The notes under the pieces: generated by a model
What the model was told of the DNA's origin: nothing
The model's database searches: none
The model's input: the letters and a program-made list of their open reading frames with translations, nothing else
DNA from: Eledone cirrhosa
Lineage: Eukaryota
Direction of reading: 5' to 3'
Assembly: GCA_964016885.1 (NCBI GenBank)
Contig: OZ024741.1
Coordinates: 235,290,001 to 235,354,000, forward strand
Length of the DNA stretch: 64,000 nucleotides
In this document: positions 15,340 through 64,000 of the stretch, one piece after another
Layout of the letters: the number at the start of each line of letters is the position of its first letter
How positions within the stretch are numbered: the stretch's first letter is position 1
Position numbers and translations under genes: made by a program

Positions 15340-17920
15340 GAGAAGTTGTCATGTCTTTTGACGCAAACCGAAGGGTACTCCCAACCTCTTGTTTGGCAAG
15401 CTTTCTACAGTTGGATGCTCTTCCTAACACCAATCATTTTACACTATGTACTGGGGGCTTTTATTGTGTAGATTACCATCTCTAGGGAGTTTGTCATGTT
15501 CTTAACATCAGGGCTCTGTTCTTAGCCCCCTACTATTTATTATTGCCCTTCAGGCTATAACAGAGGAGTTCAAGACCGGCTGCCCATGGGAACTCCTATA
15601 CGCAGATGATCTAACGCTCATAGCTGAATCAATGACCGAACTAGAGAAGAAATTCCAAACATGGAAGCACGGCCTAGAATCAAAAGGCCTTAAAATTAAC
15701 CTGGCTAAGACTAAAGTTCTAGTTTGTAGGAAAGAAAATAAGGCGGCAGTCCCATCTGGGAAATGGCCATGCTCAGTGTGTAGGAAAGTCGTAGGTAGAA
15801 ACTCCATTTTATGTCCCAAATGCAAAGTATGGGTGCATAAAAGATGTAGTGGGATCACAGGTAAGCTAACTAAGAACATAGATTTTACATGTGGCCGGTG
15901 CTCTGGTGCAATAAGTAGCAGCAAGTGCCCACAAAATACTAGCTCCTTCAACTGCGCAGAGGGTTCTATAGAAATAGTGGACAGCTTCCGTTACCTGGGT
16001 GACAAAATCAGCAGTGGGGGAGGGTGCTCTGAAAGTACAGTAGCTAGAGTCAGAACTGGATGGAAAAAGTTCAGAGAGCTTATACCACTATTAGCCGCTA
16101 GAGGGTTCTCCCTAAAAATGAAAGGCAGGTTATATGATGCCTGCATACGAACAGCAATGCTGCATGGTAGTGAGACCTGGGCATTGTGTGCAGAGGATAT
16201 ACGCAGACTAGAGAGGAACGAAGCTTGCATGCTCCGCTGGATGTGCAATAGTAATATACATGAACGGCAAAGCATAAACGAACTAAGGAAAAAATTAGAA
16301 ATAAGAGGGATCAGATGTTGTTTACTCGAGAGAAGGCTACGCTGGTACGGTCACGTGATGCGCATGAAAGACGACAGCTGTATAACAAAGTGCAGGGCAA
16401 TAAAGATAGACGGTAGCCACGGAGTAGGCAGACCCAGAAAAACATGGGACGAGCTGATAAATTCCGACCTCACACGCTTACACCTCTCCAAGACAATGTC
16501 ACTGGACCGAGACCTTTGGCGGTACTCAGTAATAGAGAAGACCCGCCTTACCTAAATACAAAGTAAAAACCTACTACAGTCAGTAGGCATCTCTATCAAA
16601 ACACCCCCCCCCCGTCCCACCACCTCCGCCCCTTTCAATGTACAGTTATGTTGGTCCCACAACATCCAGGCCGAAACAAATGAGATCGTGTCACGACAAA
16701 AAACACACAGTCCACGCTGTAATGTGGCCGTGTAGGCAACACGGTAAGAACCTCCCAGTTCCACACTGTAAATGTGGTTGGTGTTAGGAAGGGCATCCAG
16801 CTGTAGAAAACCCGCCAGACAGTCCTATGCGAGCAAGACAACCACTCTTGCCTCAAGTGGGAAAACCCCACGTCCAAACCCATGCAAGCGTGGAACACGG
16901 ACGCTAAACCTGATGATGATGATGATGATGATTAACACAACTAAAGGGTCCTCCCAACACTTTGTTTGGCAAGCTTTCTACGGCTGGATGCCCTTCCTAA
17001 CACCAACCACTTTACAGCATGTACTGGGTGCGTTTCTTGTTTAGATTACCAATACTAGAGAGGTTGTATCTTTGACACAACTAAAGGGTCCTCTCAATCC
17101 TTTGCAGCATGATTTCTACAGCAAGGTGTCCTTCCTGTCACCAACCACCCTTACAGAGTGTACCGGGTGAATTTTCGTGACACCATCACAGTTGGTCATA
17201 TACTCAACTGTAGAGCCCACTCTGCTCTGGGGAGAGAGATAGGTATGAAATTATAGTAAGGGGTAGGGTTGGCTGATTAGTGTATGGGGAAAGGAGATGT
17301 AGGGGCGTGGTGGATGCGGTCAATAGAATGGGAGGGCATGGGGGAGAAATAAGTAAAGGGGTAAGGGCTGGTAGTGGGGGAGGGGATGAACAAGGGGTAA
17401 AGAGAATAGCTACAAGGGTGCAATGATGAGGATATCTAAGGGCTTTAGAGTGGGGTAATCATCTTACAGCTGTTTTCTTAGCTGGCTTCTTTGGCCAAGT
17501 TGTTACAAACCAAGTCAAAACTTAATTGGAACTATATCCTAGGCACACCAGAAGCCATAACTTGCTTGCAAACGTTAAGGTTCAGGTATGGTTTCTGCAG
17601 TTGAATACATTTCTTAATACCAATCACTTTACACAGTGTATTGGATGCATATTATCATGGCACCAGCACAAAAGGTCGTCTCATCCTTGACATTACTGAA
17701 GAGTTCTCTCAACCCTTTTTAGCATTGTTCTATGACTGAATGCCTTTCCCAACACCAACCACTTTACACTGTGTACTGAGTGCATTTTATCATGACACCA
17801 GCACTAAAGAGATTGTGAGGTCTTTGACTTCACAGAAAAGCTTCCTAACTCTATGTTGTTACCAGTTGAATATCAACCACTTCACAGAGTGTACTGCATT
17901 CAATTTATAGAGACACTAAC
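15340..17920. repeat. Decayed tandem array of about 125-135 bp units, interrupted by an RTE insertion
   Basis: Recurrent tttgacacaactaaagggtcctc...ggatgcccttcctaacaccaaccactttacag at about 15355, 16935, 17070, 17685 and 17822. Confidence 0.55.
15508..16931 (+). mobile_element. Young 5'-truncated RTE LINE with open RT C-terminal frame, PHD-like insert, (GAT)n tail and candidate 6-bp TSD
   Basis: HQGSVLSPLLF and YADDL motifs, with the frame open to the stop at 16555. TTAACA occurs at 15502-15507 and 16932-16937. Confidence 0.92.
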
Positions 17921-29919: not shown

Positions 29920-32397
<2,478 letters not shown>

Positions 32398-32539
32398 GAG
32401 TTTATGTTGGTTGTATACCAACACCTCAGTATGCAGGCTGGAGCACTCGACGAAGTGCGCAGGTTGGTTTGGTTACTCCGGAGTAGTGTAAAATAAAGTT
32501 AAATAAAAGTCAAATGATTAAAATTTACCTTCTTTTATT

Positions 32540-32594
32540 ACTGCTATATATATTTCAGTGACAGCCATCTTTGGCTGTGACCTCTTCAGGCAGT
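32540..32594 (-). ncRNA. Hammerhead motif (left arm)
   Basis: Reverse complement of 32821-32875. Confidence 0.75.
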
Positions 32595-32820
32595 TTGAAT
32601 TAGTATGGTATAGACAAGTACATATGTTGTTTAGGTGTATAATATTGTCAATAATATTGTCAATACTCTGATATGCCCAGTTCCTTGTTGGGTTGTTAAT
32701 TCACTGAATTAACAGTTCCTCAGTGAATTAACAACCCAACAAGGAACTGGGCATATCAGAGTATTGACAATATTATACACCTAAACAACATATGTACTTG
32801 TCTATACCATACTAATTCAA

Positions 32821-32875
32821 ACTGCCTGAAGAGGTCACAGCCAAAGATGGCTGTCACTGAAATATATATAGCAGT
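32821..32875 (+). ncRNA. Type I hammerhead ribozyme motif (right arm)
   Basis: ACUGC-CUGAAGA-ggu(c)acagcca(aaga)uggcugu(c)acu-GAAAU-AUAU-AUA-GCAGU. Confidence 0.8.
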
Positions 32876-32949
32876 AATAAACAAAGCTAAATTTTAATCA
32901 TTTGACTTTTATTTAACTTTATTTTTTATATATATATAAAGAGAGTATT

Positions 32950-35737
32950 GAAGTTTGCTTGAAGCATTGTGGAATAATAAGGTATATTTCTTTAGGTCGT
33001 TTCGGAAGCCTCAACAATGCAGATGGGTAAATCTCCGGGTAACAAGATCCGGTGGTGGAGAGAGAGATGTAAGTGAATGTAGGTTGAGGTGTGTAGTGTG
33101 TAGAAGATTGTAGGAAAGAGCGTAAAGGATAACAATAATAATAACACGAGATAGAGTTACCTTGGGAGAGATTTAATTGTCCCTATATATTTCGGATTCA
33201 CATCCATCAACTGGGGTTTTTTCGGGGGGGGGGGTCTGTCGGAAAGGTGCGAAACATGTCCTCCGCTGTTCGTTGTTTTGAATATCTGAGGTATTCAGCA
33301 GAGCGCGCGTGTGCGTGAAATGAGGTCGGTCAAGCAGAGGTCGGCGGCCGAAATAGTTCTTTCAATCGTGGGAGTGGGGTGGCGTTAGCTGTCAGTCCAT
33401 TGTATTATCTGCCCTGTTGAATAGTGTGTGGTTGTGATAGTATTCTCTGCCTGTTTGGTGAATGTTACTATGTGTGTGTGTGTGCGTGTGTTGTTGTCTC
33501 GCTTGAGTGTGTGTGGGCGTGTGTTGTTGCCTCGTTCGTCTGTATTAGCAGTGTAGTATGTTCGTATGGTGGAATGCTACTGTGCGTGTGTGTGTGCGTG
33601 TGTTGCTGTCTCGCTTGTGTGTGTGAGTGTGTTGTTGCATCGTTTGTTTACTGAAACCAACCACCTCATTTCGCTTCTCTCGGATCGGTTATTTATTGTG
33701 GCCCTAGGCGTTTGATCCAAAGTGCTTCCTTGATTCGTAATGTGCCGACGTTTCTTTCTGTCGCTAGAATTGTGACAATGGGCCTTCCGTCTTTGTTTCG
33801 GCATTTGGTTATGTGTTTCCGGAAAGACGAGGCCCTGGTGTTAATGTGCTCCTTGATCCGGATGTGTAGCGGCCGGATTGTGCTGCCTATAGAGTAGTGG
33901 TTGCACTTGCTACATTCTATCTTATACACGACGTATGTGCGTAGGCAACAGTTCGTATGGCGCATCGGGCAGTTTCTGAGGGAGCACGCGTCAGTTGATT
34001 TCCCGGGTTTCCTGGAGAGGCATCTTCGCAGGGAGGGGCCCGAGTGGGCCAGGTGGATGTCGAGCCCCCCCCCCCCCCGTATAGCCTTGCGGATAGCGTT
34101 GGTGGTATTCTCGCCCAGGTGTGGTATTTTAAGGAAGCACTTGCCTTGGGTGTTTCTCTGCCTCTTGTGTCTGGTGTCTCTTATTCTGTTTGTGAGTGAG
34201 GCAGGGTACCCGTTCGTCTCCAACACTTCGGAAGATGTGAGGATGAGGATATCGTCCACGTAAGTTGAGAAAAAGGCGACGGCGTTGGGGTGGCAGGCGT
34301 TGAGTGCCTTGCGCTCGAGGCTGTCCATGTATGAGATCGCTAGCACACCCGACAGGCTTGAGCCCATGGACAGTCCCGAGGTTTGCTGGTATGTTTGGTC
34401 AAGGAATCCGAAGTATGTGTGTCAACAACGATGGATAGGAGTTGGTGGATGTCAGTGGTGGTGAGCCCAAAGCAGTGTAGGTCGGTGGATTGGACGCGTT
34501 CCATCAGTATATTAACGGCCGGGAGTGCCGGGACCGAGGTGTGGAGAGCAACTACATCAAGGCTGAAGGCATATCTGTTAGCCTTTCTGGTGTCGGGATC
34601 CATTTGATGCAGGTGCTCCAACACCTCCTTGGAGCTGTTAACATGTCCCGGCAAGGTGTCTAAGATGGGTTTGAGTATTCTGGCAAGGAGCCATGAAATT
34701 TTGTAGAGCGGTCCTTCCACGCTCGATACAATGGGCCTGATCTTCAGGTCGGGTCCCTGTGTGTGTGTTTTCACGAGGTGGTAGAAGGCGGGTAGTCTGC
34801 TGTTCCTCGTGAGGAAGTTGTATCTCAGCTTCTTCGGGAGCTTCCGCCAGTCGCAGATGTTGGTCCAGGCGGCGTTGATGTGCTCCTCTATCTGCGCGGG
34901 AGTGATTCCCGTGACCTTGGAGTAGAGGTTGTCATCGTCAAGGTGTTGGAGGGCCAGGGTATTGTAGGCCTTTCTGCTGATGACGCAGAATTTCTTTCCC
35001 TTGTCGGAGGGTAGGTAGATGAGGTTCTTCGATTTCAGATTGGAGAGAGTGGTGAGTTAAGATTTGGTGAGGTTGTGTGTAGTGTGTGTGTGTTCGAGAA
35101 GTATATCCGAGATGGAGTGTTTTAGCCTGATGAGTTTAGTGTCGAGTTCGTGGTTGGTGGGTGGGTGGGGGTGGAGTGGGTTGTCGGGGTGGTAAGTGGG
35201 GAACTTGAGGTGGGTTGCGTGGGCGCTGTTATTTTCTGTAGCCCTGTTGATGGCGGTCACCCATTTAAGTTGGTAAGCGGCTCGACAAAAGTTGGCTTCG
35301 ATGTCGAGTTTGAGTCTGTCGTCGAGTCGTTGTAAGACGATGAACTTGGGTCCGAGGTGTAGGAGTTTCAGCTCGTCGCTCGTGAGAGTGCCGGTTAGGT
35401 CGGTGACCAGGTGCGTCGCATCGTTGTTGTTTTCCACGTGGTTCTGGTCTGTCTGTTTGTTAGTGTCGATGTTCTCGTTGTGGAGTTTAGACAAGATCCA
35501 CTCATATTTCCGCTTGAGCCGTTTTATCTCATATTGGACTCTGGAGTGGTAGCACTGGTCGATTGCTTTAGTGATTTTCAGGAGCAAGTCGCCGGGTGTT
35601 ATTGACAGTCGATGTGTCCGCTCTGAGAGTGTCCGCTTATGGATGTGTACTTGGCGGTTGAGATGTCTCAGGATCTGTTTGATACACGTGCGATGTATGC
35701 GGTTAGTGGTGTTTTGAAAAGCTGGTGTACGTAGGCT
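32950..35737 (-). mobile_element. Penelope-like element (N-terminal region, RT, GIY-YIG), frameshifted and internally deleted
   Basis: LGPKF, PSDKG, IRPIVS, FSLDVVALHTSVP, MGSSLS, YVDDIL and VVYKIECSKCNHYSIGST. The RT thumb region appears missing. More GC-rich than its flanks. Confidence 0.92.
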
Positions 35738-36459
35738 TATATATATATATATATATATACATTCCCATATATATATATACCTTATATTATATATGCATAT
35801 ACTATGTAAAAACTATCTAGTTATAATAAAATAATTTAAAAAAATGTTTTTAACTCCCTCCACACAAGTTTAAAAGATAACAATTATATAACCAATAATA
35901 TTTTATATACTCTATAAGGATTAATTTATAACATTACTACAATAATAAAACAACCCTTAATTTATCAACAACCTTAATTACCTCCCTTTGTTATTAAACC
36001 CCCTTTACAACTTCCTGTGTAAATTCATAAAATTAAGCAACCTAACGGTTTACCAACAACTTAATAACGGTTAACACAAACCCTAGAAAAGATAATTTGT
36101 AGATAAAAAATGCATAAGATAATATACCTACAATAACAACATGGCCAGTAATACGGTGGAATTTACATTTAACAAACAAACACCAATTGACTATAAACGA
36201 CTCAAAATAATCCCATGGTTAATAGCTGTGAGTTACAAATAACATATACACATACATACGAACTATAACACAAAAACGCTTGAATAAAAATCACCTATCC
36301 AACTCTATCACGTGCTTTGCATTACACCTCACATAACAAATACCTACATTATCACCACATGCCTCTCTAACAAATTGCACGCTATCTTAAACATTTCTAA
36401 TAATTATAACGTGTTAATAATTATAACACCCCACACAAAATATGTTTATTTCAACTGCT

Positions 36460-36633
36460 ATCGGTAGAGAGTCGGACACCATGCTTTGAAGCATAGAATT
36501 ACGTCCCTTTATGATCTGAGTTCAAATCCTGCCGAGGTTAATTTTGCCTTTCATCCTTACGGGGTCGATAAAATAAAGTACCAGTAATGTACTGGTGATT
36601 TGCTGTCCTTGTGCCTAAAATAGAAACAATTAT
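36460..36633 (+). mobile_element. tRNA-derived SINE (Meta-domain-like core)
   Basis: B box GAGTTCAAATCC followed by GCCTTTCATCCTTACGGGGTCGATAAAATAAAGTACC. Confidence 0.65.
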
Positions 36634-37297: not shown

Positions 37298-37366
<69 letters not shown>

Positions 37367-37370
<4 letters not shown>

Positions 37371-37865
37371 TGTATATATAATGTATTTTGCAATACACTT
37401 TATGCTTAATTAAAAGCATTTTGAAGACCGTGTGCTATTGTTTTAGAGTAGTGACAAACTCAATTACTTTAATCTCAGCAAACAAGGGGAGATAAGCCGA
37501 CAAGGCCTTGTTTCGCATTTATTGATGCTTATCAAGGCTAACTACTCCCTCCTGTCTACTGAGATCACTGATGTTATATTCTTATAGAATTCTAGTAAAT
37601 AATCAGGTACTGATTATACGGAGCGGTTGCCGGTCAGGCAGAAATTAAAAATTAGAATTGGAGCTCTGAAATAGCAATATATATATGAATGTATATATAA
37701 TGTATTTTGCAATACACTTTGTTTGCTGAGATTAAAGTAAGTGAGTTTGTCACTACTCTAAAACAATAGCATACGGTCTTCAAAATGCTTTTAATTAAGC
37801 ATAAAGTGTATTGCAAAATACATTATATATACATTCATATATATATTGCTATTTCAGAGCTCCAA

Positions 37866-37903
<38 letters not shown>

Positions 37904-37974
37904 TTGGAGCTCTGAAATAGCAATATATATATGAATGTATATATAATGTATTTTGCAATACACTTTATGCTTAA

Positions 37975-38064
<90 letters not shown>

Positions 38065-38069
38065 TATAT

Positions 38070-38122
<53 letters not shown>

Positions 38123-38425
38123 GTATTTTGCAATACACTTTGTTTGCTGAGATTAAAGTAAGTGAGTTTGTCACTACTCTAAAACAATAGCATACGGTCT
38201 TCAAAATGCTTTTAATTAACCATAAAGTGTATTGCAAAATACATTATATATACATTCATATATATATTGCTATTTCAGAGCTCCAATTCTAATTTTTAAT
38301 TTCTGCCTGACCAACAACCGCTCTGTATATTTACTAGATTATTTACTAGAATTCTATAAGAATATAACATCAGTGATCTCAGTAGACAGGAGGGAGTAGT
38401 TAGCCTTGATAAGCTTCAATAAATG
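37367..38425. mobile_element. Cluster of direct and inverted copies of a 319-nt HHR-bearing non-coding unit (retrozyme-like)
   Basis: tgaatgtatatataatgtattttgcaatacactt recurs at 37367 and 37686. Inverted copies lie at 37720-37868 and 38141-38425. Confidence 0.75.
37495..37539 (-). ncRNA. Type I hammerhead ribozyme motif, U3-A8 variant
   Basis: AGCC-UUGAUAA-GCAU(caauaa)AUGC-GAAAC-AAGGCCUU-GUC-GGCU, with palindromic ACAAGGCCUUGU. Confidence 0.8.
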
Positions 38426-38427
38426 AT

Positions 38428-39357
38428 ATATACGATATATTAACAAATGGAAACTATATTTATAAAACCATATTTATTTCATTATACATATTTCAAGGAC
38501 ACCAAGTTAAATTATGGTGTGCTTTCATCAGATAAAATATAATATAGAGCAGTTTTATAAATAAATATTGACATACCCTTAAAGAATGCGACCATTTCTG
38601 TTGGAAGCTCCCGGATAGTGGGGTTATAAATTTATTTATACTATTATGCAAATTAGTGTCGGATATTTTAATTCACAGTAGATTTAAATAAGCCGTTGGG
38701 TTATGGCGAAAGAGAGAGAGAAAAAAGAGAAAAAAGAGTAAACTCTAAGAGGAAAATAAGAAAAATAAGAAAAGGAGAAAGAGAAGAAAAAAGAAAAGAG
38801 AAAAGAGAAAGCAAAAGAGAAAGCTCTAAGTGATATGTTGTTGTATTAGCTTAACTTTTGAGATAAAGTGAAAGAATAAATAATTAATGGATGAGTAAAG
38901 AAGAGGAAATAAGCGTGAATGGAAAATACATATATAATAGGAGAATTTTAACCATTGTTTAAATATAATTAAATGTTTAGTTTATCAATTAGATTATTGA
39001 GATTTATACATTAAAAGTTGAGATCTATATATTATTAAAAAATCTATATATTATTAAGACTATATATTATTAAAAATCTATATATTATTAAAAGAATATA
39101 TTCATATATATACATATATGAATATCCGACACTAATTTGCATAATAGTATAAATAAATTTATAACCCCACTATCCGGGAGCTTCCAACAGAAATGGTCGC
39201 ATTCTTTAAGGGTATGTCAATATTTATTTATAAAACTGCTCTATATTATATTTTATCTGATGAAAGCACACCATAATTTAACTTGGTGTCCTTGAAATAT
39301 GTATAATGCAATAAATATGGTTTTATAAATATAGTTTCCATTTGTTAATATATCGTA
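38428..39357. repeat. Inverted repeat (about 240-bp arms, about 450-bp purine-rich spacer), one HHR per arm
   Basis: 38428-38667 versus 39121-39357. The minus-strand HHR copy lies at 38475-38539. Confidence 0.9.
39249..39313 (+). ncRNA. Type I hammerhead ribozyme motif
   Basis: UAUUUUAU-CUGAUGA-aag(c)acacca...uggugu(c)cuu-GAAAU-AUGU-AUA-AUGCAAUA. Confidence 0.72.
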
Positions 39358-39559
39358 TTTTTACTCCAATAATTTTTTGAGTGCTTTATATCAGTTATAA
39401 AAATATTTGCTTGTTGTATCCCAACAAATTAAATAGAACTTCTACATATATATATACGATATTAACAAATGGAAACTATATTTATATATACATATATATA
39501 TACATATATATACATATATACACATATACACAACACATACATACGCACAGAAAAAATAT

Positions 39560-39955
39560 GTATAAATAAAAAAGGTAGGTATGTAAAGGGTAAGGTAGAA
39601 AGTAGGGGGGAATAAGGAAAATAAATAACATAGGAAAAAGTTTAAATATAAGGGGAGATAAGGGAGAAAAAGAATATAAGAATACAGAAAGTGAGTTCAG
39701 AGAGTAATAAAAATCGTAGTGGATGTAAGGCGTAGAGAGCAGAGTTCAAGAAGTTCAAGGTGGTTGAGTCATCGTAGGAATGTCAATCAAGTTACAGATC
39801 AGATGTGATTTCAGGTGAGGACAACATCTGAAGATCTCAGTCTTGGAGTTCAGGCAAGTTGAAGTGGCTCTCAAGTTTTGTAGAATTCTAAATTTTTCAG
39901 TGGTACACAAAGAACAATTCTTTGTGCCCCTTTGGTATTCTCTCGAATGGTCTAA
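39560..39955 (-). mobile_element. Penelope-like extreme 3' fragment (GIY-YIG C-terminus plus UTR)
   Basis: YQRGTKNCSLCTTEKFRIL...LNSKTEIFRCCPH. Confidence 0.75.
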
Positions 39956-42369
39956 AATGTTAATGGATGGGTACAGTGATACCACATCCATGCTGCCTAT
40001 TATGCAGTTGGATATTTCCTATTTTTGTTGCACTCATTGATTCTGCTGAGGAGGTCCTCTGTACTGTCACATACATCTGGGGACATCTTGATTATGGGGC
40101 GTAGAACCATTGAGAGGAAGTAGGAGATCCTGTAGTTGCTAGCTATATTAGCTTCGCATACGGGTCTTGTTGGTGGTCCTGTTGTCGGGTCGTCGACTGT
40201 CTTGTGGTCTTTGCGGAGCCCATATAAGGGTGGTATGCCATTGTTAGACGCCTGGAAGTTGTTGGCAGTGCGTCTGCTTGGCTTTAGGATGCCATTAACA
40301 TTGATTTTGCTGTGAAAAGATGTGTGGAGATGATCATTGAGAGTGAGGTGGAGTTCTGCGACGTCGACACAGATGAACTGGGCCTCCTACTTAGACTTAC
40401 CTAGGACACTGACTATCTAGACAGCCATGACCTTAGACGTTTCTGCCCTAGTAGACCTATAAGAGGTAGACCCCCCACCATAACCTCAATGGCAAAAAAG
40501 ACTCCCATGGGAAGGTGGATTGGGTGGACCAAAGCTATACGGACCCCCCAAAACAATGATCAGGTAAGAAAAATGGTCGCACATGCAATAGGGGCTAGTA
40601 TCAAAACTACCCTAAAGGGCCACAATTTAAGTTCAACGAGAAGATCTACACCCAAAATGAGAGAGCAGCCATCGGCGTCAGCATAGCTGGTGATGTTGCC
40701 AACCTTTTCATGGTATGGCGTTATGTAGACGATATCAATATAGTTATAAGAACACCCCCACTAGAGAGCACTAACAAGTTTGATTTAGAACGTAGCACGA
40801 TGGAAAGCATCCAGCAGATAGCTAATTCCATACACCAGAGTATAACTGTAACTATCGACTTCCCTTCCAAACACCCTAACAATAGACTACCTGTATTAGA
40901 CACAGAACTCTGGATTAACACTATAGACGAGAGAGCCCAAATTCTCCACTCACACTATGCTAAACCCATGGCCTCCAAATACCTGATACTCAAAAACTCA
41001 GCAATGTCCAGTAGTGCTAAGTTTAATATTCTGATCGCAGATTTGGTACGAGTGATGAAGAATGTGTCCCGCATGTGCGACCCAACAGAAATGGAAAGAC
41101 ACATCCAACACTTCATCAACCGCATGCAGTTCTCTGACTACAACCAAAGAGACAGAGTCAGAGTATACGAAGGAGCCATGGAGAAGTATAAGACCCTCAT
41201 AGAACTGGACATGAAAGGAATTTGCCCATTATACAGGAGCAAATCATGGAATAGCTTAGATAGGGCTAGACATAAGATAGGGAAAGCCACCTCATGGTAC
41301 GACAACCAGAGATACCAGAGTGTCATGTTTGTGGACGCTACCCCTGGAGGGAAATTAGCTAACCAGTGTAGAAAGGCCCTGAGAAAGACCCACTTAAAAA
41401 TAAAGGTGGTAGAAAAGCCAGGAACCACCATAAAATCCCTGATCAGCAAAACCTACCCTTTTAAGAAAACCCACTGTACGAATAGGAAATGTATCATATG
41501 TAAGGTGAACCCCCGGATAAACTGTAAAACTAGAAACGTAGTCTATAGCATAAGATGTACAGAGGGTACTTGCAGAAACATGACAACAACATACATAGGT
41601 GAGACAGCTCGTAGCATAGTTGAAAGGATAGACCAACACTGGGGGGGGGGGGGGACTAAAAGGACGAAAAAACGGGTCAGTACTATACGAACATGCTAGA
41701 CAACAACATGACGGTAACATAGACAACATAGAAATTAGAATAATATCTAAACATAGAAATGACCCAGCAGATAGGCAAATCAGAGAGGCCAGTGAAATAG
41801 AAATTAGAAGATCAAGGCTAAACAGAAAGAATGAATGGAATAACAACAACACCCAAACAAACAACACTGACCTAAGAGAAGTATAAATAAGTAAATAAAA
41901 TAAAATAAATAAATAAATACATACACAAGCACAATAACAACAAACACATAAACACACACTAGTTACCCATCACACAGCAAACAAAACACTATACACACAC
42001 GCAAACGCATGCGCAAAGAAGACAAAATAAAATAAAATAAACAAACAAGCAAATAAATAAATAAATATATAGACAAACTGAATAAAAATGGCGTAGACAT
42101 ACAATACAACAGGAGGAAAATATAGCACCACTGACGATGTTGCAGATGTGCAACGAAAGATTTATGATAAACTATATATATGTGTTTGTGTCTATATTGT
42201 ATCTGTATTATTTTTGACCGTCGGTCAGTCAATGGCAACATTGAGGACCGAGTAAGTTAGATTACCGATATAAAAGACACAGAAGCGAGAAGCGAAACCC
42301 AACCAAACAGTGAGTGTGTTCTGTTATTAATTCTGGCAATATTACACAAATATGACCCTCCCCAAGTAT

Positions 42370-42375
<6 letters not shown>
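39956..42375 (+). mobile_element. Penelope-like element with inverted 5' segment (39956-40291) and internal deletions
   Basis: Minus strand: PPLYGLRKDHK...MDVVSLYPSIN. Plus strand: RYVDDI, LPVLD and VVYSIRC...YIGETAR. A poly-G frameshift lies at about 41641. Confidence 0.9.
42127..42168 (+). ncRNA. PLE-associated minimal hammerhead motif, weak stem I
   Basis: acCA-CUGACGA-u-GUUGCA(gaug)UGCAAC-GAAAG-AU-UUA-UGau. Confidence 0.55.
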
Positions 42376-43446: not shown

Positions 43447-43701
43447 GAAATAATCCAAACACTGCTAATTATATCACATTTTAATTTACGTGAGTTTCAT
43501 CCTTAATATCAAGAGCTTAATACTAGGACTCATCAGAATTACATAAGATATAGTTGCCTTAAACATGACATTATATAAAAAAATATAACATACCAACATA
43601 ATAAGTCAGACAACGATCTACTCGTGTATGTGTGTATGTGTGTGTATATAGTTAAATCTTAGACAGGAACAAAAACAGAGAGGCAGTACAAATATGAGTT
43701 T

Positions 43702-47870: not shown

Positions 47871-50800
47871 AATAACAACTAGGACATCAACAGCCACAAC
47901 AATAGTGACAACAACAAAAGCAGCAATAGTAATAACAATAACAACTAGGACATCAACAGCCACAACAATAGTGACAACAACAACAACAGCAATAGTAATA
48001 ACAATAACAACTAGGACATCAACAGCCACAACAATAGTGACAACAACAACAACAACAGCAATAGTAATAACAATAACAACTAGGACATCAACAGCCACAA
48101 CAATAGTGACAACAACAACAACAGCAATAGTAATAACAATAACAACTAGGACATCAACAGCCACAACAATAGTGACAACAACAACAACAACAGCAATAGT
48201 AATAACAATAACAACTAGGACATCAACAGCCACAACAATAGTGACAACAACAACAACAGCAATAGTAATAACAATAACAACTAGGACATCAACAGCCACA
48301 ACAATAGTGACAACAACAACAACAACAGCAATAGTAATAACAATAACAACTAGGACATCAACAGCCACAACAATAGTGACAACAACAACAACAACAGCAA
48401 TAGTAATAACAATAACAGCTAGGACATCAACAGCCACAACAATAGTGACAACAACAACAACAGCAATAGTAATAACAATAACAACTAGGACATCAACAGC
48501 CACAACAATAGTGACAACAACAACAGCAGTAGTAATAACAATAAATACTAGGACATCAACAGCCACAACAATAGTGACAACAACAACAACAGCAATAGTA
48601 ATAACAGTAACAACTGGGATATCAACAACAACAACAGCAATAGTAATAACAGTAACAACTAGGACATCAACAGCCACAACAATAGTGACAACAACAACAG
48701 CATTAGTAATAACAATAACAACTAGGACATCAACAGCCACAACAATAGTGACAACAACAACAACAGCAATAGTAATAACAATAACAACTAGGACATCAAC
48801 AGCCACAACAATAGTGACAACAACAACAACAGCAATAGTAATAACAATAACAACTAGGACATCAACAGCCACAACAATAGTGACAACAGCAACAACAGCA
48901 ATAGTAATAACAATAACAACTAGGACATCAACAGCCACAACAATAGTGACAACAACAACAACAGCAATAGTAATAACAATAACAACTAGGACATCAACCG
49001 CCACAACAATAGTGACAACAGCAACAACAGCAATAGTAATAACAATAACAACTAGGACATCAACAGCCACAACAATAGTGACAACAACAACAACAGCAAT
49101 AGTAATAACAATAACAACTAGGACATCAACAGCCACAACAATAGTGACAACAGCAACAACAGCAATAGTAATAACAATAACAACTAGGACATCAACAGCC
49201 ACAACAATAGTGACAACAACAACAACAACAATAGTAATAACAATAACAACTAGGACATCAACCGCCACAACAATAGTGACAACAGCAACAACAGCAATAG
49301 TAATAACAATAACAACTAGGACATCAACAGCCACAACAATAGTGACAACAACAACAACAACATCAATAGTAATAACAATAACAACTCGGACATCAACAGC
49401 CACAACAATAGTGACAACAACAACAGCAATAGTAATAACAATAACAACTAGGAAATCAACAGCCACAACAATAGTGACAACAACAACAACAGCAATAGTA
49501 ATAACAATAACAACTAGGACATCAACAGCCACAACAATATTGACAACAACAACAACAGCAATAGTAATAACAATAACAACTAGCACATCAACAGCCACAA
49601 CAATAGTGACAACAACAACAACAGCAATAGTAATAACAATAACAACTAGGACATCAACAGCCACAACAATAGTGACAACAACAACAGCAGCAATAGTAAT
49701 AACAATAACAACTAGGACATCAACAGCCACAACAATAGTGACAACAACAACAGCAGCAATAGTAATAACAATAACAACTAGGACATCAACAGCCACAACA
49801 ATAGTGACAACAGCAACAACAGCAATAGTAATAACAATAACAACTAGGACATCAACAGCCACAACAATAGTGACAACAACAACAACAGCAATAGTAATAA
49901 CAAAAACAACTAGGACATCAACAGCCACAACAATAGTGACAACAACAACAACAGGAATAGTAATAACAATAACAACTAGGACATCAACAGCCACAACAAT
50001 AGTGACAACAACAACAGCAATAGTAATAACAAAAACAACTAGGACATCAACAGCCACAACAATAGTGACAACAACAACAGCAGGAATAGTAATAACAATA
50101 ACAACTAGGACATCAACAGCCACAACAATAGTGACAACAACAACAGCAATAGTAATAACAAAAACAACTAGGACATCAACAGCCACAACAATAGTGACAA
50201 CAACAACAACAGCAATAGTAATAACAATAACAACTAGGACATCAACAGCCACAACAATAGTGACAACAACAACAGCAATAGTAATAACAATAACAACTAG
50301 GACATCAACAGCCACAACAATAGTGACAACAGCAACAACAGCAATAGTAATAACAATAACAACTAGGACATCAACAGCCACAACAATAGTGACAACAACA
50401 ACAACAGCAATAGTAATAACAATAACAACTAGGACATCAACAGCCACAACAATAGTGACAACAACAACAACAGCAATAGTAATAACAATAACAACTAGGA
50501 CAACAACAGCCACAACAATAGTGACAACAACAACAACAGCAATAGTAATAACAAAAACAACTAGGACATCAACAGCCACAACAATAGTGACAACAACAAC
50601 AGCAATAGTAATAACAAAAACAACTAGGACATCAACAGCCACAACAATAGTGACAACAACAACAGCAATAGTAATAACAATAACTAGGACATCAACAGCC
50701 ACAACAATAGTGACAACAACAACAGCAATAGTAATAACAATAACTAGGACATCAACAGCCACAACAATAGTGACAACAACAACAGCAGCAATAGTAATAA

Positions 50801-53800
50801 CAATAACAACTAGGACATCAACAGCCACAACAATAGTGACAACAACAACAGCAGCAATAGTAATAACAATAACAACTAGGACATCAACAGCCACAACAAT
50901 AGTGACAACAGCAACAACAGCAATAGTAATAACAATAACAACTAGGACATCAACAGCCACAACAATAGTGACAACAACAACAACAGCAATAGTAATAACA
51001 AAAACAACTAGGACATCAACAGCCACAACAATAGTGACAACAACAACAACAGGAATAGTAATAACAATAACAACTAGGACATCAACAGCCACAACAATAG
51101 TGACAACAACAACAGCAATAGTAATAACAAAAACAACTAGGACATCAACAGCCACAACAATAGTGACAACAACAACAGCAGGAATAGTAATAACAATAAC
51201 AACTAGGACATCAACAGCCACAACAATAGTGACAACAACAACAGCAATAGTAATAACAAAAACAACTAGGACATCAACAGCCACAACAATAGTGACAACA
51301 ACAACAACAGCAATAGTAATAACAATAACAACTAGGACATCAACAGCCACAACAATAGTGACAACAACAACAGCAATAGTAATAACAATAACAACTAGGA
51401 CATCAACAGCCACAACAATAGTGACAACAACAACAACAGCAATAGTAATAACAATAACAACTAGGACATCAACAGCCACAACAATAGTGACAACAACAAC
51501 AACAACAGCAATAGTAATAACAATAACAACTAGGACATCAACAGCCACAACAATAGTGACAACAACAACAACAACAGCAATAGTAATAACAATAACAGCT
51601 AGGACATCAACAGCCACAACAATAGTGACAACAACAACAACAGCAATAGTAATAACAATAACAACTAGGACATCAACAGCCACAACAATAGTGACAACAA
51701 CAACAGCAGTAGTAATAACAATAAATACTAGGACATCAACAGCCACAACAATAGTGACAACAACAACAACAGCAATAGTAATAACAGTAACAACTGGGAT
51801 ATCAACAACAACAACAGCAATAGTAATAACAGTAACAACTAGGACATCAACAGCCACAACAATAGTGACAACAACAACAGCATTAGTAATAACAATAACA
51901 ACTAGGACATCAACAGCCACAACAATAGTGACAACAACAACAACAGCAATAGTAATAACAATAACAACTAGGACATCAACAGCCACAACAATAGTGACAA
52001 CAACAACAACAGCAATAGTAATAACAATAACAACTAGGACATCAACAGCCACAACAATAGTGACAACAGCAACAACAGCAATAGTAATAACAATAACAAC
52101 TAGGACATCAACAGCCACAACAATAGTGACAACAACAACAACAGCAATAGTAATAACAATAACAACTAGGACATCAACCGCCACAACAATAGTGACAACA
52201 GCAACAACAGCAATAGTAATAACAATAACAACTAGGACATCAACAGCCACAACAATAGTGACAACAACAACAACAGCAATAGTAATAACAATAACAACTA
52301 GGACATCAACAGCCACAACAATAGTGACAACAGCAACAACAGCAATAGTAATAACAATAACAACTAGGACATCAACAGCCACAACAATAGTGACAACAAC
52401 AACAACAGCAATAGTAATAACAATAACAACTAGGACATCAACCGCCACAACAATAGTGACAACAGCAACAACAGCAATAGTAATAACAATAACAACTAGG
52501 ACATCAACAGCCACAACAATAGTGACAACAACAACAACAACATCAATAGTAATAACAATAACAACTCGGACATCAACAGCCACAACAATAGTGACAACAA
52601 CAACAGCAATAGTAATAACAATAACAACTAGGAAATCAACAGCCACAACAATAGTGACAACAACAACAACAGCAATAGTAATAACAATAACAACTAGGAC
52701 ATCAACAGCCACAACAATATTGACAACAACAACAACAGCAATAGTAATAACAATAACAACTAGCACATCAACAGCCACAACAATAGTGACAACAACAACA
52801 ACAGCAATAGTAATAACAATAACAACTAGGACATCAACAGCCACAACAATAGTGACAACAACAACAGCAGCAATAGTAATAACAATAACAACTAGGACAT
52901 CAACAGCCACAACAATAGTGACAACAACAACAGCAGCAATAGTAATAACAATAACAACTAGGACATCAACAGCCACAACAATAGTGACAACAGCAACAAC
53001 AGCAATAGTAATAACAATAACAACTAGGACATCAACAGCCACAACAATAGTGACAACAACAACAACAGCAATAGTAATAACAAAAACAACTAGGACATCA
53101 ACAGCCACAACAATAGTGACAACAACAACAACAGGAATAGTAATAACAATAACAACTAGGACATCAACAGCCACAACAATAGTGACAACAACAACAGCAA
53201 TAGTAATAACAAAAACAACTAGGACATCAACAGCCACAACAATAGTGACAACAACAACAGCAGGAATAGTAATAACAATAACAACTAGGACATCAACAGC
53301 CACAACAATAGTGACAACAACAACAGCAATAGTAATAACAAAAACAACTAGGACATCAACAGCCACAACAATAGTGACAACAACAACAACAGCAATAGTA
53401 ATAACAATAACAACTAGGACATCAACAGCCACAACAATAGTGACAACAACAACAGCAATAGTAATAACAATAACAACTAGGACATCAACAGCCACAACAA
53501 TAGTGACAACAACAACAACAGCAATAGTAATAACAATAACAACTAGGACATCAACAGCCACAACAATAGTGACAACAACAACAACAACAGCAATAGTAAT
53601 AACAATAACAACTAGGACATCAACAGCCACAACAATAGTGACAACAACAACAACAACAGCAATAGTAATAACAATAACAGCTAGGACATCAACAGCCACA
53701 ACAATAGTGACAACAACAACAACAGCAATAGTAATAACAATAACAACTAGGACATCAACAGCCACAACAATAGTGACAACAACAACAGCAGTAGTAATAA

Positions 53801-56800
53801 CAATAAATACTAGGACATCAACAGCCACAACAATAGTGACAACAACAACAACAGCAATAGTAATAACAGTAACAACTGGGATATCAACAACAACAACAGC
53901 AATAGTAATAACAGTAACAACTAGGACATCAACAGCCACAACAATAGTGACAACAACAACAGCATTAGTAATAACAATAACAACTAGGACATCAACAGCC
54001 ACAACAATAGTGACAACAACAACAACAGCAATAGTAATAACAATAACAACTAGGACATCAACAGCCACAACAATAGTGACAACAACAACAACAGCAATAG
54101 TAATAACAATAACAACTAGGACATCAACAGCCACAACAATAGTGACAACAGCAACAACAGCAATAGTAATAACAATAACAACTAGGACATCAACAGCCAC
54201 AACAATAGTGACAACAACAACAACAGCAATAGTAATAACAATAACAACTAGGACATCAACCGCCACAACAATAGTGACAACAGCAACAACAGCAATAGTA
54301 ATAACAATAACAACTAGGACATCAACAGCCACAACAATAGTGACAACAACAACAACAGCAATAGTAATAACAATAACAACTAGGACATCAACAGCCACAA
54401 CAATAGTGACAACAGCAACAACAGCAATAGTAATAACAATAACAACTAGGACATCAACAGCCACAACAATAGTGACAACAACAACAACAGCAATAGTAAT
54501 AACAATAACAACTAGGACATCAACCGCCACAACAATAGTGACAACAGCAACAACAGCAATAGTAATAACAATAACAACTAGGACATCAACAGCCACAACA
54601 ATAGTGACAACAACAACAACAACATCAATAGTAATAACAATAACAACTCGGACATCAACAGCCACAACAATAGTGACAACAACAACAGCAATAGTAATAA
54701 CAATAACAACTAGGAAATCAACAGCCACAACAATAGTGACAACAACAACAACAGCAATAGTAATAACAATAACAACTAGGACATCAACAGCCACAACAAT
54801 ATTGACAACAACAACAACAGCAATAGTAATAACAATAACAACTAGCACATCAACAGCCACAACAATAGTGACAACAACAACAACAGCAATAGTAATAACA
54901 ATAACAACTAGGACATCAACAGCCACAACAATAGTGACAACAACAACAGCAGCAATAGTAATAACAATAACAACTAGGACATCAACAGCCACAACAATAG
55001 TGACAACAACAACAGCAGCAATAGTAATAACAATAACAACTAGGACATCAACAGCCACAACAATAGTGACAACAGCAACAACAGCAATAGTAATAACAAT
55101 AACAACTAGGACATCAACAGCCACAACAATAGTGACAACAACAACAACAGCAATAGTAATAACAAAAACAACTAGGACATCAACAGCCACAACAATAGTG
55201 ACAACAACAACAACAGGAATAGTAATAACAATAACAACTAGGACATCAACAGCCACAACAATAGTGACAACAACAACAGCAATAGTAATAACAAAAACAA
55301 CTAGGAGATCAACAGCCACAACAATAGTGACAACAACAACAGCAGGAATAGTAATAACAATAACAACTAGGACATCAACAGCCACAACAATAGTGACAAC
55401 AACAACAGCAATAGTAATAACAAAAACAACTAGGACATCAACAGCCACAACAATAGTGACAACAACAACAACAGCAATAGTAATAACAATAACAACTAGG
55501 ACATCAACAGCCACAACAATAGTGACAACAACAACAGCAATAGTAATAACAATAACAACTAGGACATCAACAGCCACAACAATAGTGACAACAACAACAA
55601 CAGCAATAGTAATAACAATAACAACTAGGACATCAACAGCCACAACAATAGTGACAACAACAACAACAACAGCAATAGTAATAACAATAACAACTAGGAC
55701 ATCAACAGCCACAACAATAGTGACAACAACAACAACAACAGCAATAGTAATAACAATAACAGCTAGGACATCAACAGCCACAACAATAGTGACAACAACA
55801 ACAACAGCAATAGTAATAACAATAACAACTAGGACATCAACAGCCACAACAATAGTGACAACAACAACAGCAGTAGTAATAACAATAAATACTAGGACAT
55901 CAACAGCCACAACAATAGTGACAACAACAACAACAGCAATAGTAATAACAGTAACAACTGGGATATCAACAACAACAACAGCAATAGTAATAACAGTAAC
56001 AACTAGGACATCAACAGCCACAACAATAGTGACAACAACAACAGCATTAGTAATAACAATAACAACTAGGACATCAACAGCCACAACAATAGTGACAACA
56101 ACAACAACAGCAATAGTAATAACAATAACAACTAGGACATCAACAGCCACAACAATAGTGACAACAACAACAACAGCAATAGTAATAACAATAACAACTA
56201 GGACATCAACAGCCACAACAATAGTGACAACAGCAACAACAGCAATAGTAATAACAATAACAACTAGGACATCAACAGCCACAACAATAGTGACAACAAC
56301 AACAACAGCAATAGTAATAACAATAACAACTAGGACATCAACCGCCACAACAATAGTGACAACAGCAACAACAGCAATAGTAATAACAATAACAACTAGG
56401 ACATCAACAGCCACAACAATAGTGACAACAACAACAACAGCAATAGTAATAACAATAACAACTAGGACATCAACAGCCACAACAATAGTGACAACAGCAA
56501 CAACAGCAATAGTAATAACAATAACAACTAGGACATCAACAGCCACAACAATAGTGACAACAACAACAACAGCAATAGTAATAACAATAACAACTAGGAC
56601 ATCAACCGCCACAACAATAGTGACAACAGCAACAACAGCAATAGTAATAACAATAACAACTAGGACATCAACAGCCACAACAATAGTGACAACAACAACA
56701 ACAACATCAATAGTAATAACAATAACAACTCGGACATCAACAGCCACAACAATAGTGACAACAACAACAGCAATAGTAATAACAATAACAACTAGGAAAT

Positions 56801-59800
56801 CAACAGCCACAACAATAGTGACAACAACAACAACAGCAATAGTAATAACAATAACAACTAGGACATCAACAGCCACAACAATATTGACAACAACAACAAC
56901 AGCAATAGTAATAACAATAACAACTAGCACATCAACAGCCACAACAATAGTGACAACAACAACAACAGCAATAGTAATAACAATAACAACTAGGACATCA
57001 ACAGCCACAACAATAGTGACAACAACAACAGCAGCAATAGTAATAACAATAACAACTAGGACATCAACAGCCACAACAATAGTGACAACAACAACAGCAG
57101 CAATAGTAATAACAATAACAACTAGGACATCAACAGCCACAACAATAGTGACAACAGCAACAACAGCAATAGTAATAACAATAACAACTAGGACATCAAC
57201 AGCCACAACAATAGTGACAACAACAACAACAGCAATAGTAATAACAAAAACAACTAGGACATCAACAGCCACAACAATAGTGACAACAACAACAACAGGA
57301 ATAGTAATAACAATAACAACTAGGACATCAACAGCCACAACAATAGTGACAACAACAACAGCAATAGTAATAACAAAAACAACTAGGACATCAACAGCCA
57401 CAACAATAGTGACAACAACAACAGCAGGAATAGTAATAACAATAACAACTAGGACATCAACAGCCACAACAATAGTGACAACAACAACAGCAATAGTAAT
57501 AACAAAAACAACTAGGACATCAACAGCCACAACAATAGTGACAACAACAACAACAGGAATAGTAATAACAATAACAACTAGGACATCAACAGCCACAACA
57601 ATAGTGACAACAACAACAGCAATAGTAATAACAATAACAACTAGGACATCAACAGCCACAACAATAGTGACAACAGCAACAACAGCAATAGTAATAACAA
57701 TAACAACTAGGACATCAACAGCCACAACAATAGTGACAACAACAACAACAGCAATAGTAATAACAATAACAACTAGGACATCAACAGCCACAACAATAGT
57801 GACAACAACAACAACAGCAATAGTAATAACAATAACAACTAGGACAACAACAGCCACAACAATAGTGACAACAACAACAACAGCAATAGTAATAACAAAA
57901 ACAACTAGGACATCAACAGCCACAACAATAGTGACAACAACAACAGCAATAGTAATAACAAAAACAACTAGGACATCAACAGCCACAACAATAGTGACAA
58001 CAACAACAGCAATAGTAATAACAATAACTAGGACATCAACAGCCACAACAATAGTGACAACAACAACAGCAATAGTAATAACAATAACTAGGACATCAAC
58101 AGCCACAACAATAGTGACAACAACAACAGCAGCAATAGTAATAACAATAACAACTAGGACATCAACAGCCACAACAATAGTGACAACAACAACAGCAGCA
58201 ATAGTAATAACAATAACAACTAGGACATCAACAGCCACAACAATAGTGACAACAGCAACAACAGCAATAGTAATAACAATAACAACTAGGACATCAACAG
58301 CCACAACAATAGTGACAACAACAACAACAGCAATAGTAATAACAAAAACAACTAGGACATCAACAGCCACAACAATAGTGACAACAACAACAACAGGAAT
58401 AGTAATAACAATAACAACTAGGACATCAACAGCCACAACAATAGTGACAACAACAACAGCAATAGTAATAACAAAAACAACTAGGACATCAACAGCCACA
58501 ACAATAGTGACAACAACAACAACAGCAGGAATAGTAATAACAATAACAACTAGGACATCAACAGCCACAACAATAGTGACAACAACAACAGCAATAGTAA
58601 TAACAAAAACAACTAGGACATCAACAGCCACAACAATAGTGACAACAACAACAACAGCAATAGTAATAACAATAACAACTAGGACATCAACAGCCACAAC
58701 AATAGTGACAACAACAACAGCAATAGTAATAACAATAACAACTAGGACATCAACAGCCACAACAATAGTGACAACAGCAACAACAGCAATAGTAATAACA
58801 ATAACAACTAGGACATCAACAGCCACAACAATAGTGACAACAACAACAACAGCAATAGTAATAACAATAACAACTAGGACATCAACAGCCACAACAATAG
58901 TGACAACAACAACAACAGCAATAGTAATAACAATAACAACTAGGACAACAACAGCCACAACAATAGTGACAACAACAACAACAGCAATAGTAATAACAAA
59001 AACAACTAGGACATCAACAGCCACAACAATAGTGACAACAACAACAGCAATAGTAATAACAAAAACAACTAGGACATCAACAGCCACAACAATAGTGACA
59101 ACAACAACAGCAATAGTAATAACAATAACTAGGACATCAACAGCCACAACAATAGTGACAACAACAACAGCAATAGTAATAACAATAACTAGGACATCAA
59201 CAGCCACAACAATAGTGACAACAACAACAGCAGGAATAGTAATAACAATAACAACTAGGACATCAACAGCCACAACAATAGTGACAACAACAACAGCAAT
59301 AGTAATAACAATAACAACTAGGACATCAACAGCCACAACAATAGTGACAACAGCAACAACAGCAATAGTAATAACAATAACAACTAGGACATCAACAGCC
59401 ACAACAATAGTGACAACAACAACAACAGCAATAGTAATAACAATAACAACTAGGACATCAACAGCCACAACAATAGTGACAACAACAACAACAGCAATAG
59501 TAATAACAATAACAACTAGGACATCAACAGCCACAACAATAGTGACAACAGCAACAACAGCAATAGTAATAACAATAACAACTAGGACATCAACAGCCAC
59601 AACAATAGTGACAACAACAACAACAGCAATAGTAATAACAATAACAACTAGGACATCAACAGCCACAACAATAGTGACAACAACAACAACAGCAATAGTA
59701 ATAACAATAACAACTAGGACATCAACAGCCACAACAATAGTGACAACAGCAACAACAGCAATAGTAATAACAAGAACAACTAGGACATCAACAGCCACAA

Positions 59801-60399
59801 CAATAGTGACAACAACAACAACAGCAATAGTAATAACAATAACAACTAGGACATCAACAGCCACAACAATAGTGACAACAACAACAACAGCAATAGTAAT
59901 AACAATAACAACTAGGACATCAACAGCCACAACAATAGTGACAACAACAACAACAGCAATAGTAATAACAATAACAACTAGCACATCAACAGCCACAACA
60001 ATAGTGACAACAACAACAACAGCAATAGTAATAACAATAACTAGGACATCAACAGCCACAACAATAGTGACAACAACAACAGCAATAGTAATAACAATAA
60101 CTAGGACATCAACAGCCACAACAATAGTGACAACAGCAACAGCAGCAATAGTAATAACAATAACAACTAGGACATCAACAGCCACAACAATAGTGACAAC
60201 AACAACAACAGCAATAGTAATAACAATAACAACTAGGACATCAACAGCCACAACAATAGTGACAACAACTACAACAGCAATAGTAATAACAAAAACAACT
60301 AGGACATCAACAGCCACAACAATAGTGACAACAACAACAGCAATAGTAATAACAATAACTAGGACATCAACAGCCACAACAATAGTGACAACAACAACA
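47871..60399. repeat. 12.5-kb satellite, about 63-bp unit (60-66 bp), about 200 copies, with higher-order structure
   Basis: Consensus ACTAGGACATCAACAGCCACAACAATAGTG(ACA)nGCAATAGTAATAACAATAACA. A marker variant recurs at 48541, 51721, 53803 and 55885. Confidence 0.97.
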
Positions 60400-60479
60400 C
60401 ACATATTACTACCACAAAAGGCTACAACCTGTACTGTTTCTGAAATTACATAATATAGAATCACTATGAAACATCTGAA

Positions 60480-63400: not shown

Positions 63401-64000
63401 CCACTACAACACCACTATCACTCCCACACAGACCTGGTACCACTACCACTCCCACACAGACCTGGTACCACTACCACTCCCACACAGACCTGGTACCACT
63501 ACCACTCCCACACAGTCCTGGTACCACTACAACACCACTATCACTCCCACACAGTCCTGGTACCACTATCACTCCCACATAGTCCAGGTACCACTACAAC
63601 ACCACTATCACTCCCACACAGTCCTGCTACCACTACAACACCACTATCACTCCCACACAGTCCTGGTACCACTGCAACACCACTATCACTCCCACACAGT
63701 CCTGGTACCACTATCACTCCCACACAGTCCTCGTACCACTACAACACCACTATCACTCCCACACAGACCTGGTACCACTACCACTCCCACATATTACTAG
63801 TACCACTACAACACCACTATCTCTCCCACACAGTCCTGGTACCACTGCAACACCACTATCACTCCCACACAGTCCTGGTACCACTACCACTCCCACACAG
63901 TCCTGGTACCACTACAACACCACTAGTACCACTACAACACCACTATCACTCCCACACAGTCCTGGTGCCACTACCACTCCCACACAGTCTTGGTACCACT
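60480..64000. repeat. 39-bp satellite degenerating into 27-51 bp variants; runs off the window end
   Basis: Unit CACCACTATCAYTCCCACACAGTCCTGRTACCACTACAA. It is regular over about 60720-61900 and modular after that. Confidence 0.95.

Follow-up and report, generated by a model that had tools for sequence, protein, structure and literature searches.

A 319-nt unit bearing a predicted hammerhead ribozyme lies in the window, the whole 64,000-nt stretch of Eledone cirrhosa DNA analysed here. The copy is inserted in TA repeats and has ends of the type made by Penelope-like elements (PLEs). Its probable identity is a non-autonomous retrozyme, the source of which would cut itself to a 319-nt circle copied by a PLE reverse transcriptase (RT). 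The family is young and has thousands of copies. The footprint of PLE integration is visible copy by copy, beside a very abundant candidate helper.

We numbered the unit from the first base past the predicted cut (position 1; window position 37498, minus strand). An arm is one unbroken run of unit sequence. The 319-nt period described in the earlier note was confirmed: 37358–37401 and 37677–37720 are identical at 44 of 44 positions. Arm A has its short 3′ end next to the target, a (TA)n tract evident from the sequence at 37304–37357. This arm (37358–37720, minus strand) is 363 nt long and runs through unit positions 98–319 then 1–141, where the short 3′ end falls. Arm B (37719–37872, plus strand) is an inverted, 5′-truncated copy of positions 14–167. 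It meets arm A head-to-head and finishes at the long 3′ end. The last 26 nt (positions 142–167; 37847–37872, plus strand) form a 'tail' that only one arm of the pair carries, as recognised from short and long pairs across the family. Fragment C (37897–37978, minus strand; positions 86–167) is a fold-back copy of arm B over a short (AT)n. Fragment D (38113–38141, minus strand; positions 98 to ~126) belongs to a duplicated 98/14 junction as its short left arm and has degraded into (AT)n. Hence, local fold-back and duplication have occurred at this locus. Arm E (38140–38425, plus strand; positions 14–302) is 95.5% identical to the unit of arm A.

Two plus-strand copies had been reported to begin at the same place, and they do: arms B and E start at 37719 and 38140, both at unit position 14. 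The A/B and D/E pairs share one inversion junction, at positions 98/14 (201 nt at 97%). Hence, a single event was duplicated locally, either genomically or during assembly, and these are not two independent starts. The longer copy, arm E, indeed stops inside helix II of the next hammerhead, at 38425 (position 302). This hammerhead is incomplete: GAAA is missing, helix II is mismatched and a different insertion abuts. The remainder of arm E is absent within the window. The abutting insertion (38426–39450) carries a hammerhead and meets arm E with its short end; other copies of that insertion show the same end before (TA)n. The stop is thus that insertion's usual short end and is uninformative about the template. 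The tandem comprises only 1.14 units and one complete hammerhead, that of arm A. Hence, this locus cannot free a monomer by two cuts. We conclude that the window copy is a product rather than a source.

The single complete hammerhead reads as the earlier note stated, on the minus strand at 37495–37539 with a GUC triplet. From 37539 to 37495, it consists of helix I (AGCC), the core UUGAUAA, helix II (GCAU/AUGC, 4 bp with a 6-nt loop), GAAA, a palindromic helix III, GUC and GGCU. This is a type I arrangement, identified from sequence and from covariation across subfamilies, with a predicted cut at 37499/37498. In the predicted fold, an extended helix I surrounds the hammerhead (37473–37564, minus strand), with an internal loop and a long distal stem. 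Its core is of the U3-A8 type rather than canonical CUGANGA, a point on which the first reading was silent. U3-A8 is a known natural covariation, reported active in vitro (PMC3088659), and occurs in hammerheads of Schistosoma PLEs (PMC4209133). The C3-G8 pair is treated in PMC3884650; a C3-G8 version of the unit's hammerhead pattern had no match genome-wide. In Rfam, the only match to the unit's hammerhead was sub-threshold (HH9; 19.5 bits, gathering score 52, E 0.67). Rfam microRNA matches at 37821–37948 were rejected: they fall short of the gathering scores and reflect hairpin and AT artefacts.

Covariation was assessed in 15 copies from different subfamilies. In this hand-picked, mutually related set, with some columns fixed by the search pattern, 96.4% of cells were paired and 6 of 26 pairs had changed on both sides. 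The covariation score was reached by none of 500 shuffles of these copies, and slid controls were 36–45% paired. The number of pairs with double changes was not a significant measure in the same 15 copies (52 of 500 shuffles). At free positions, C-G became U-A in helix I; in helix II, A-U became U-A and U-A became C-G. The palindromes of helix III were kept. Across the 15 copies, the 12 distal pairs of extended helix I were 91.6% paired, with one pair changed on both sides. We conclude that helices I, II and III covary.

Folding of the whole unit gave z = -5.0. Helix III does not fold alone; with a second copy, it is predicted to pair at -19.5 kcal/mol. Such pairing fits cutting as a dimer, the mode described for type I hammerheads of animals (PMC4209133). 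Of nine predicted Xenopus retrozyme dimers, only one cleaved in vitro (Li et al. 2026; 10.64898/2026.07.22.740005). Hence, a convincing fold does not prove that a hammerhead is active.

The exact 43-nt hammerhead is present in 125 copies genome-wide and the reversed control in none. Hence, its recurrence is not due to chance. A wider core pattern gave 2,844 matches, again with none for the reversed control. Copies of the young subfamily diverge from their majority sequence by approximately 1.5% on average (85 loci). The unit in the window is one copy of this young, dispersed subfamily inside the wider family. Our first sample of 85 loci combined 77 clusters, from 100 listed of the 125 exact places, with 8 more loci, duplicates dropped. 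The second sample of 74 loci combined 55 clusters, from the first 100 of the 2,844 places, with 19 older-subfamily loci. Dispersed and tandem copies, for which the earlier note advised a genome search, were both found; with thousands of copies, the unit is not single-copy. The period is mostly 316–319 nt in the wider family, and tandem periods were 316–324 nt in 22 monomers. At least two intact cores stand in tandem at 20 of the 85 young loci and at 13 of 55 loci. This is a feature of the family, not of the window locus, and those 20 young loci could be sources. Possible source arrays were seen at G000:C2:208895105-208908049 (~20 unit hammerheads listed in 13 kb) and at C2:207689620-207711559 (8 in 22 kb). 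The unit is non-coding and low in GC (34%), and the longest open frame on the circle has 46 codons. A 319-nt step-back was also present in contigs of three runs, of unrecorded kind, from three other organisms. Four runs of that kind were used as contigs, and they do not bear on expression.

Copies of the unit terminate at two fixed 3′ ends in (TA)n, 26 nt apart. In the first sample, 134 of 156 arms ended at positions 137–143 or 162–176; in the second, 114 of 144 did. TA-like sequence followed 119 of the 134 canonical 3′ ends at the 85 loci. Of the 85 loci in the first sample, 55 held head-to-head inverted pairs, as did 44 of the 74 in the second. Where both ends were canonical, one was short and the other long in 37 of 42 and 28 of 29 pairs, respectively (65 of 71 together); these counts exclude a further 14 and 16 pairs in which an end was non-canonical. 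The 5′ ends were scattered round the unit, with 11 of 133 at positions 1–20 in the first sample (8.3 expected, p=0.21) and 7 of 114 in the second (7.1 expected). Copy starts just 3′ of the cut were rejected as a signature of the family, there being no excess at 1–20 in either sample. What had been read at the window locus thus stands for that locus only. A post hoc window at positions 10–20 held 10 ends in the first sample (4.6 expected, p=0.017) and 2 in the second (3.9 expected). TA flanked only 23 of 100 free 5′ ends and, with 3′ ends in (TA)n, no target-site duplication was readable.

PLE insertions are described as having an inverted 5′-truncated copy, a tail on one end and a bias for microsatellites (PMC8557442, PMC3846280). 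The fixed ends, inverted arms and one-sided tail of the unit match this arrangement. The fold-back and duplication behind fragments C and D, and the long array at G000:C2:208.9 Mb, could also be produced at the DNA level. The unit would then be a satellite or an inverted-repeat element, either MITE-like or a product of slippage, and its hammerhead a relic. We regard this as very improbable. The combination of fixed 3′ and random 5′ ends is a hallmark of reverse transcription, and this polarity largely refutes a DNA-level origin. The inverted arms also vary in length and junction, and compensatory changes in three helices indicate selection on the RNA fold.

The cut site is read through. There are 136 exact copies of positions 8–50 and 125 copies of the hammerhead that spans the cut. 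Among the first 30 exact copies of positions 8–50, which were not selected for the hammerhead, 29 cross the cut. A linear cut monomer would stop arms at position 1. Hence, it was rejected as the main template. Of the 156 arms in the hammerhead-selected sample, 77 are longer than one unit. Arms of the young subfamily extend to four units with no preferred 5′ boundary. Such read-through and lengths are expected from either a circular or an uncut multimeric template.

More than 90% of rare variants were private. Tandem units of one arm shared 32 of 422 variant sites (7.6%) and opposite arms 17 of 476 (3.6%), compared with 417 of 96,433 (0.4%) between loci. This fits repeated copying of one molecule. 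It also fits homogeneous source arrays or local conversion. The same PLE-mobilised family could have been copied from linear, uncut transcripts of arrays, with no circle, and the hammerhead slow or kept for another step. Such a multimer would account for every insertion footprint no less well than a circle. Arrays of at least six units exist and, if homogeneous, would likewise predict read-through and shared variants. With helix III unfolded in the monomer, cutting may be slow. Against this, sharing within insertions is ~19-fold over background, with several variants found in three units of one insertion (L130). The four-unit arms without a preferred boundary also weigh against it, and known retrozymes that were tested form circles (PMC7229834). 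We consider the uncut multimer a serious contender, albeit an unlikely one.

The circle remains our preferred template. Briefly, tandem source loci would be transcribed and two hammerheads would pair through palindromic helix III to cleave the multimer. The cut monomer would then be ligated to a 319-nt circle, as RtcB does in vitro for other retrozymes. A PLE GIY-YIG endonuclease would nick (TA)n. The TA run of the unit (141) would serve for priming on one strand, and a point 26 nt beyond it (167) on the other. Copying would then roll round the circle to a random stop, and the two arms would be joined head-to-head.

We compared the unit with PLE open reading frames (ORFs) of the same genome, using a partial PLE library and a sample of loci. 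With tblastn, PLE frames matched 25 of the 85 loci. In the 85 and 74 loci together, only three sense joints of unit and PLE ORF were found (L006, L165 and L190), each mid-ORF, at different unit positions and in different families. These loci and L003 were rejected as autonomous parents; the joints are mid-ORF or to a decayed non-PLE element. Among the loci sampled, no ORF with RT and GIY-YIG between pseudo-LTRs (pLTRs) was found in the unit or in a cognate position. Nor did the unit form a terminal repeat at 20 PLE loci with a long ORF or at 30 loci with GIY-YIG. At one of these 30, a 78% relative lies 670 nt off as an inverted pair of its own. The possibility raised in the earlier note, that the unit occurs only as the terminal repeat of a PLE, thus finds no cognate ORF in the loci sampled.

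Near the short 3′ end, a splice-donor-like GTRAGT and an acceptor-like TATTTCAG flank it on either side (unit positions ~32–152; window 37737–37857, plus strand). GTRAGT is present in 18 of 22 tandem monomers and TATTTCAG in 21 of 22. PLEs retain introns. Hence, the splice-like motifs may be a relic of a pLTR.

These motifs, the PLE-type ends and the placing of the hammerhead, which precedes the 3′ end by ~140 nt here and in the L210 PLE described below, would all suit a pLTR of an autonomous PLE that has escaped location, with the copies being truncated 3′ ends. Places outside the sample amount to 25 of the 125 exact and ~2,740 of the 2,844 wider matches. Even so, we judge this improbable. 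The upstream neighbour of the unit is more unit, an inverted arm, (TA)n or unrelated DNA, and the bare unit is often found in perfect head-to-tail arrays. The scarce mid-ORF joints and the 20 long-ORF and 30 GIY-YIG loci argue against it too.

A separate PLE is the likely helper, and one that targets TA. The best single candidate is a family that accounts for 5 of the 20 long-ORF PLE loci (L210, L211, L214, L218 and L220) and has a U3-A8 hammerhead. L210 (G000:C1:145870000-145877000) is a full-length, autonomous PLE of ~5 kb. Its repeats are 4,979 nt apart, with a hammerhead in both, and its 938-codon frame encodes RT and GIY-YIG. EN+ Neptune-type PLEs have a CX2-5CxxC linker, and the Cx4CxxC linker of L210 is of Neptune type by motif rather than by tree (PMC8557442). 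The family is young, with 10,850 exact copies of its 34-nt hammerhead. Its 3′ ends lie in (TA)n, ~+82 or ~+150 after the predicted cut, and 15 of 18 pairs are long plus short. The hammerheads of L210 and the unit are identical at 22 of 26 core positions, both are U3-A8, and both elements have the long end at TTCTAAT. This core and the 7-nt end motif are the only matches; nothing else is alignable. The long–short offset is 26 nt for the unit and ~68 nt for the L210 PLE.

Head-to-head hybrids of unit and PLE were also found, 4 among 100 free 5′ ends at 188 loci. Two involve the L210 family (L203/L289 and L063) and two the PLE family of window positions 40299–42374 (L174 and L254). Three of the four keep the long-plus-short rule; two of the joints fall within a TA-rich stretch of the unit itself. 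Flank coverage predicts ~1.6 and ~1.0, respectively. Hybrids were not accepted as proof of the helper: two PLE families are involved and the count is not above this expectation. Hence, they are leads only.

In a wider reading, which we offer tentatively, a cephalopod family of U3-A8 circles would be loaded by Penelope-like RNPs, copied round the ligation junction and sometimes co-inserted with helper RNA as hybrids. If true, this would be direct genomic evidence of PLE machinery mobilising animal ribozyme circles, perhaps via more than one PLE family. The common U3-A8 core would then mark the main helper. The unit and the L210 PLE form a concrete pair in which the nature of the template, RNA circle or not, and the identity of the PLE that carries it can be addressed.

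The earlier note had proposed a retrozyme-like family. Copy number, dispersed and tandem arrangement, lack of coding, the type I hammerhead and PLE-type ends uphold this; starts near the cut drop out as support. Like metazoan non-LTR retrozymes (PMC7229834), the unit is non-coding, low in GC, within the range of 150–450 nt and structured as a monomer. It also shares the type I hammerhead, 4-bp helix II, palindromic helix III, tandem copies and co-occurring PLEs. Every feature that could be checked agrees, and the unit is probably a new member of this group. Circles have been demonstrated for those retrozymes and are predicted for the unit. It differs in its U3-A8 core throughout and in the fixed ends, tail and inverted arms documented here. 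The cited part of Cervera and de la Pena 2020 (PMC7229834) covers coral, mussel and axolotl retrozymes and names no cephalopod. The vertebrate retrozymes of Li, Clavereau and Pollet 2026 (10.64898/2026.07.22.740005) likewise form monomers, dimers and multimers and are linked to PLEs, being presented as non-autonomous PLE derivatives; their 35 species include no mollusc among the groups given. In Xenopus, the PLE link is co-occurrence and pLTR homology, the basis of the earlier proposal that PLEs mobilise animal retrozymes (Li et al. 2026). For the unit, it is the insertion footprint; with the partial PLE library, no pLTR homology was found beyond the hammerhead core. A review calls PLEs 'likely candidates' for retrozyme mobilisation (PMC7761336).

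The inverted 5′-truncated copy, one-ended tail and (TA)n bias are shared with EN+ PLEs and with non-autonomous ones, Chlamydomonas MRC1 among them (PMC8557442, PMC3846280), as are head-to-tail copies with the latter. Unlike EN+ PLEs, the unit has no ORF, and its tail is 26 nt compared with the 30–40 nt described. Non-autonomous units of Chlamys PLEs resemble the 3′ ends of their partners, and Chlamys mostly lack canonical hammerheads (same sources). The core covariation is that of Schistosoma Cercyon PLE hammerheads (PMC4209133) and other natural U3-A8 cores (PMC3088659). The Schistosoma motifs are heterogeneous minimal hammerheads, mostly single, whereas the unit has a conserved motif of canonical size in tandem. 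Plant LTR retrozymes differ in having type III hammerheads in LTRs round a central region; the unit is type I and a bare tandem. Our literature search found no description of a cephalopod retrozyme, and a prior listing in the PMC7229834 supplement, Repbase or Dfam is possible. The cited part of the giant squid genome paper gives 235 Rfam hammerhead hits, unaccompanied by analysis (PMC6962438). Searches fixed on CUGANGA would miss ~13,000 hammerheads in the present genome (2,844 and 10,850).

Other repeats in the window and genome carry similar motifs. A third U3-A8 hammerhead family (L230 and L250; G000:C1:35.11 Mb and 265.15 Mb) ends in (TA)n, with inverted arms that are short and a ~40-nt tail; no ORF was seen at these loci. 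The insertion at 38426–39450 is an inverted copy of another repeat, found many times in other loci. It has a minimal C3-G8 hammerhead at 38531 (minus strand), mirrored near 39257 (plus strand), a short end near 39358 and a long end near 39450. Beside it is a PLE (39600–42374), with an inverted 5′ piece at 39600–40295 (minus strand) and an RT/GIY-YIG remnant at 40299–42374 (plus strand) that ends in (TA)n. By eye, a minimal hammerhead-like motif was seen in this PLE at 42130–42170. A neighbouring PLE protein has an Octopus bimaculoides homologue (75% identical over 56%), the sole eukaryote named among 120 listed of 852 matches. Two further decayed PLE-like ORFs lie at 30156–31932 (plus strand) and 33693–35812 (minus strand; RT and GIY-YIG matches). 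An inverted pair at 32490–32925 has hammerhead-like motifs at 32589 and 32826, and a loose scan gave others at 43536 (minus strand) and 7909 (plus strand). A repeat at ~36470–36600 presumably resembles an octopus SINE. At 15506–16555, there is a LINE-type RT fragment with a PHD finger within its frame. Large tandem arrays occupy 47871–63925, with a 66/198-nt period to 60399 and a 39-nt period thereafter.
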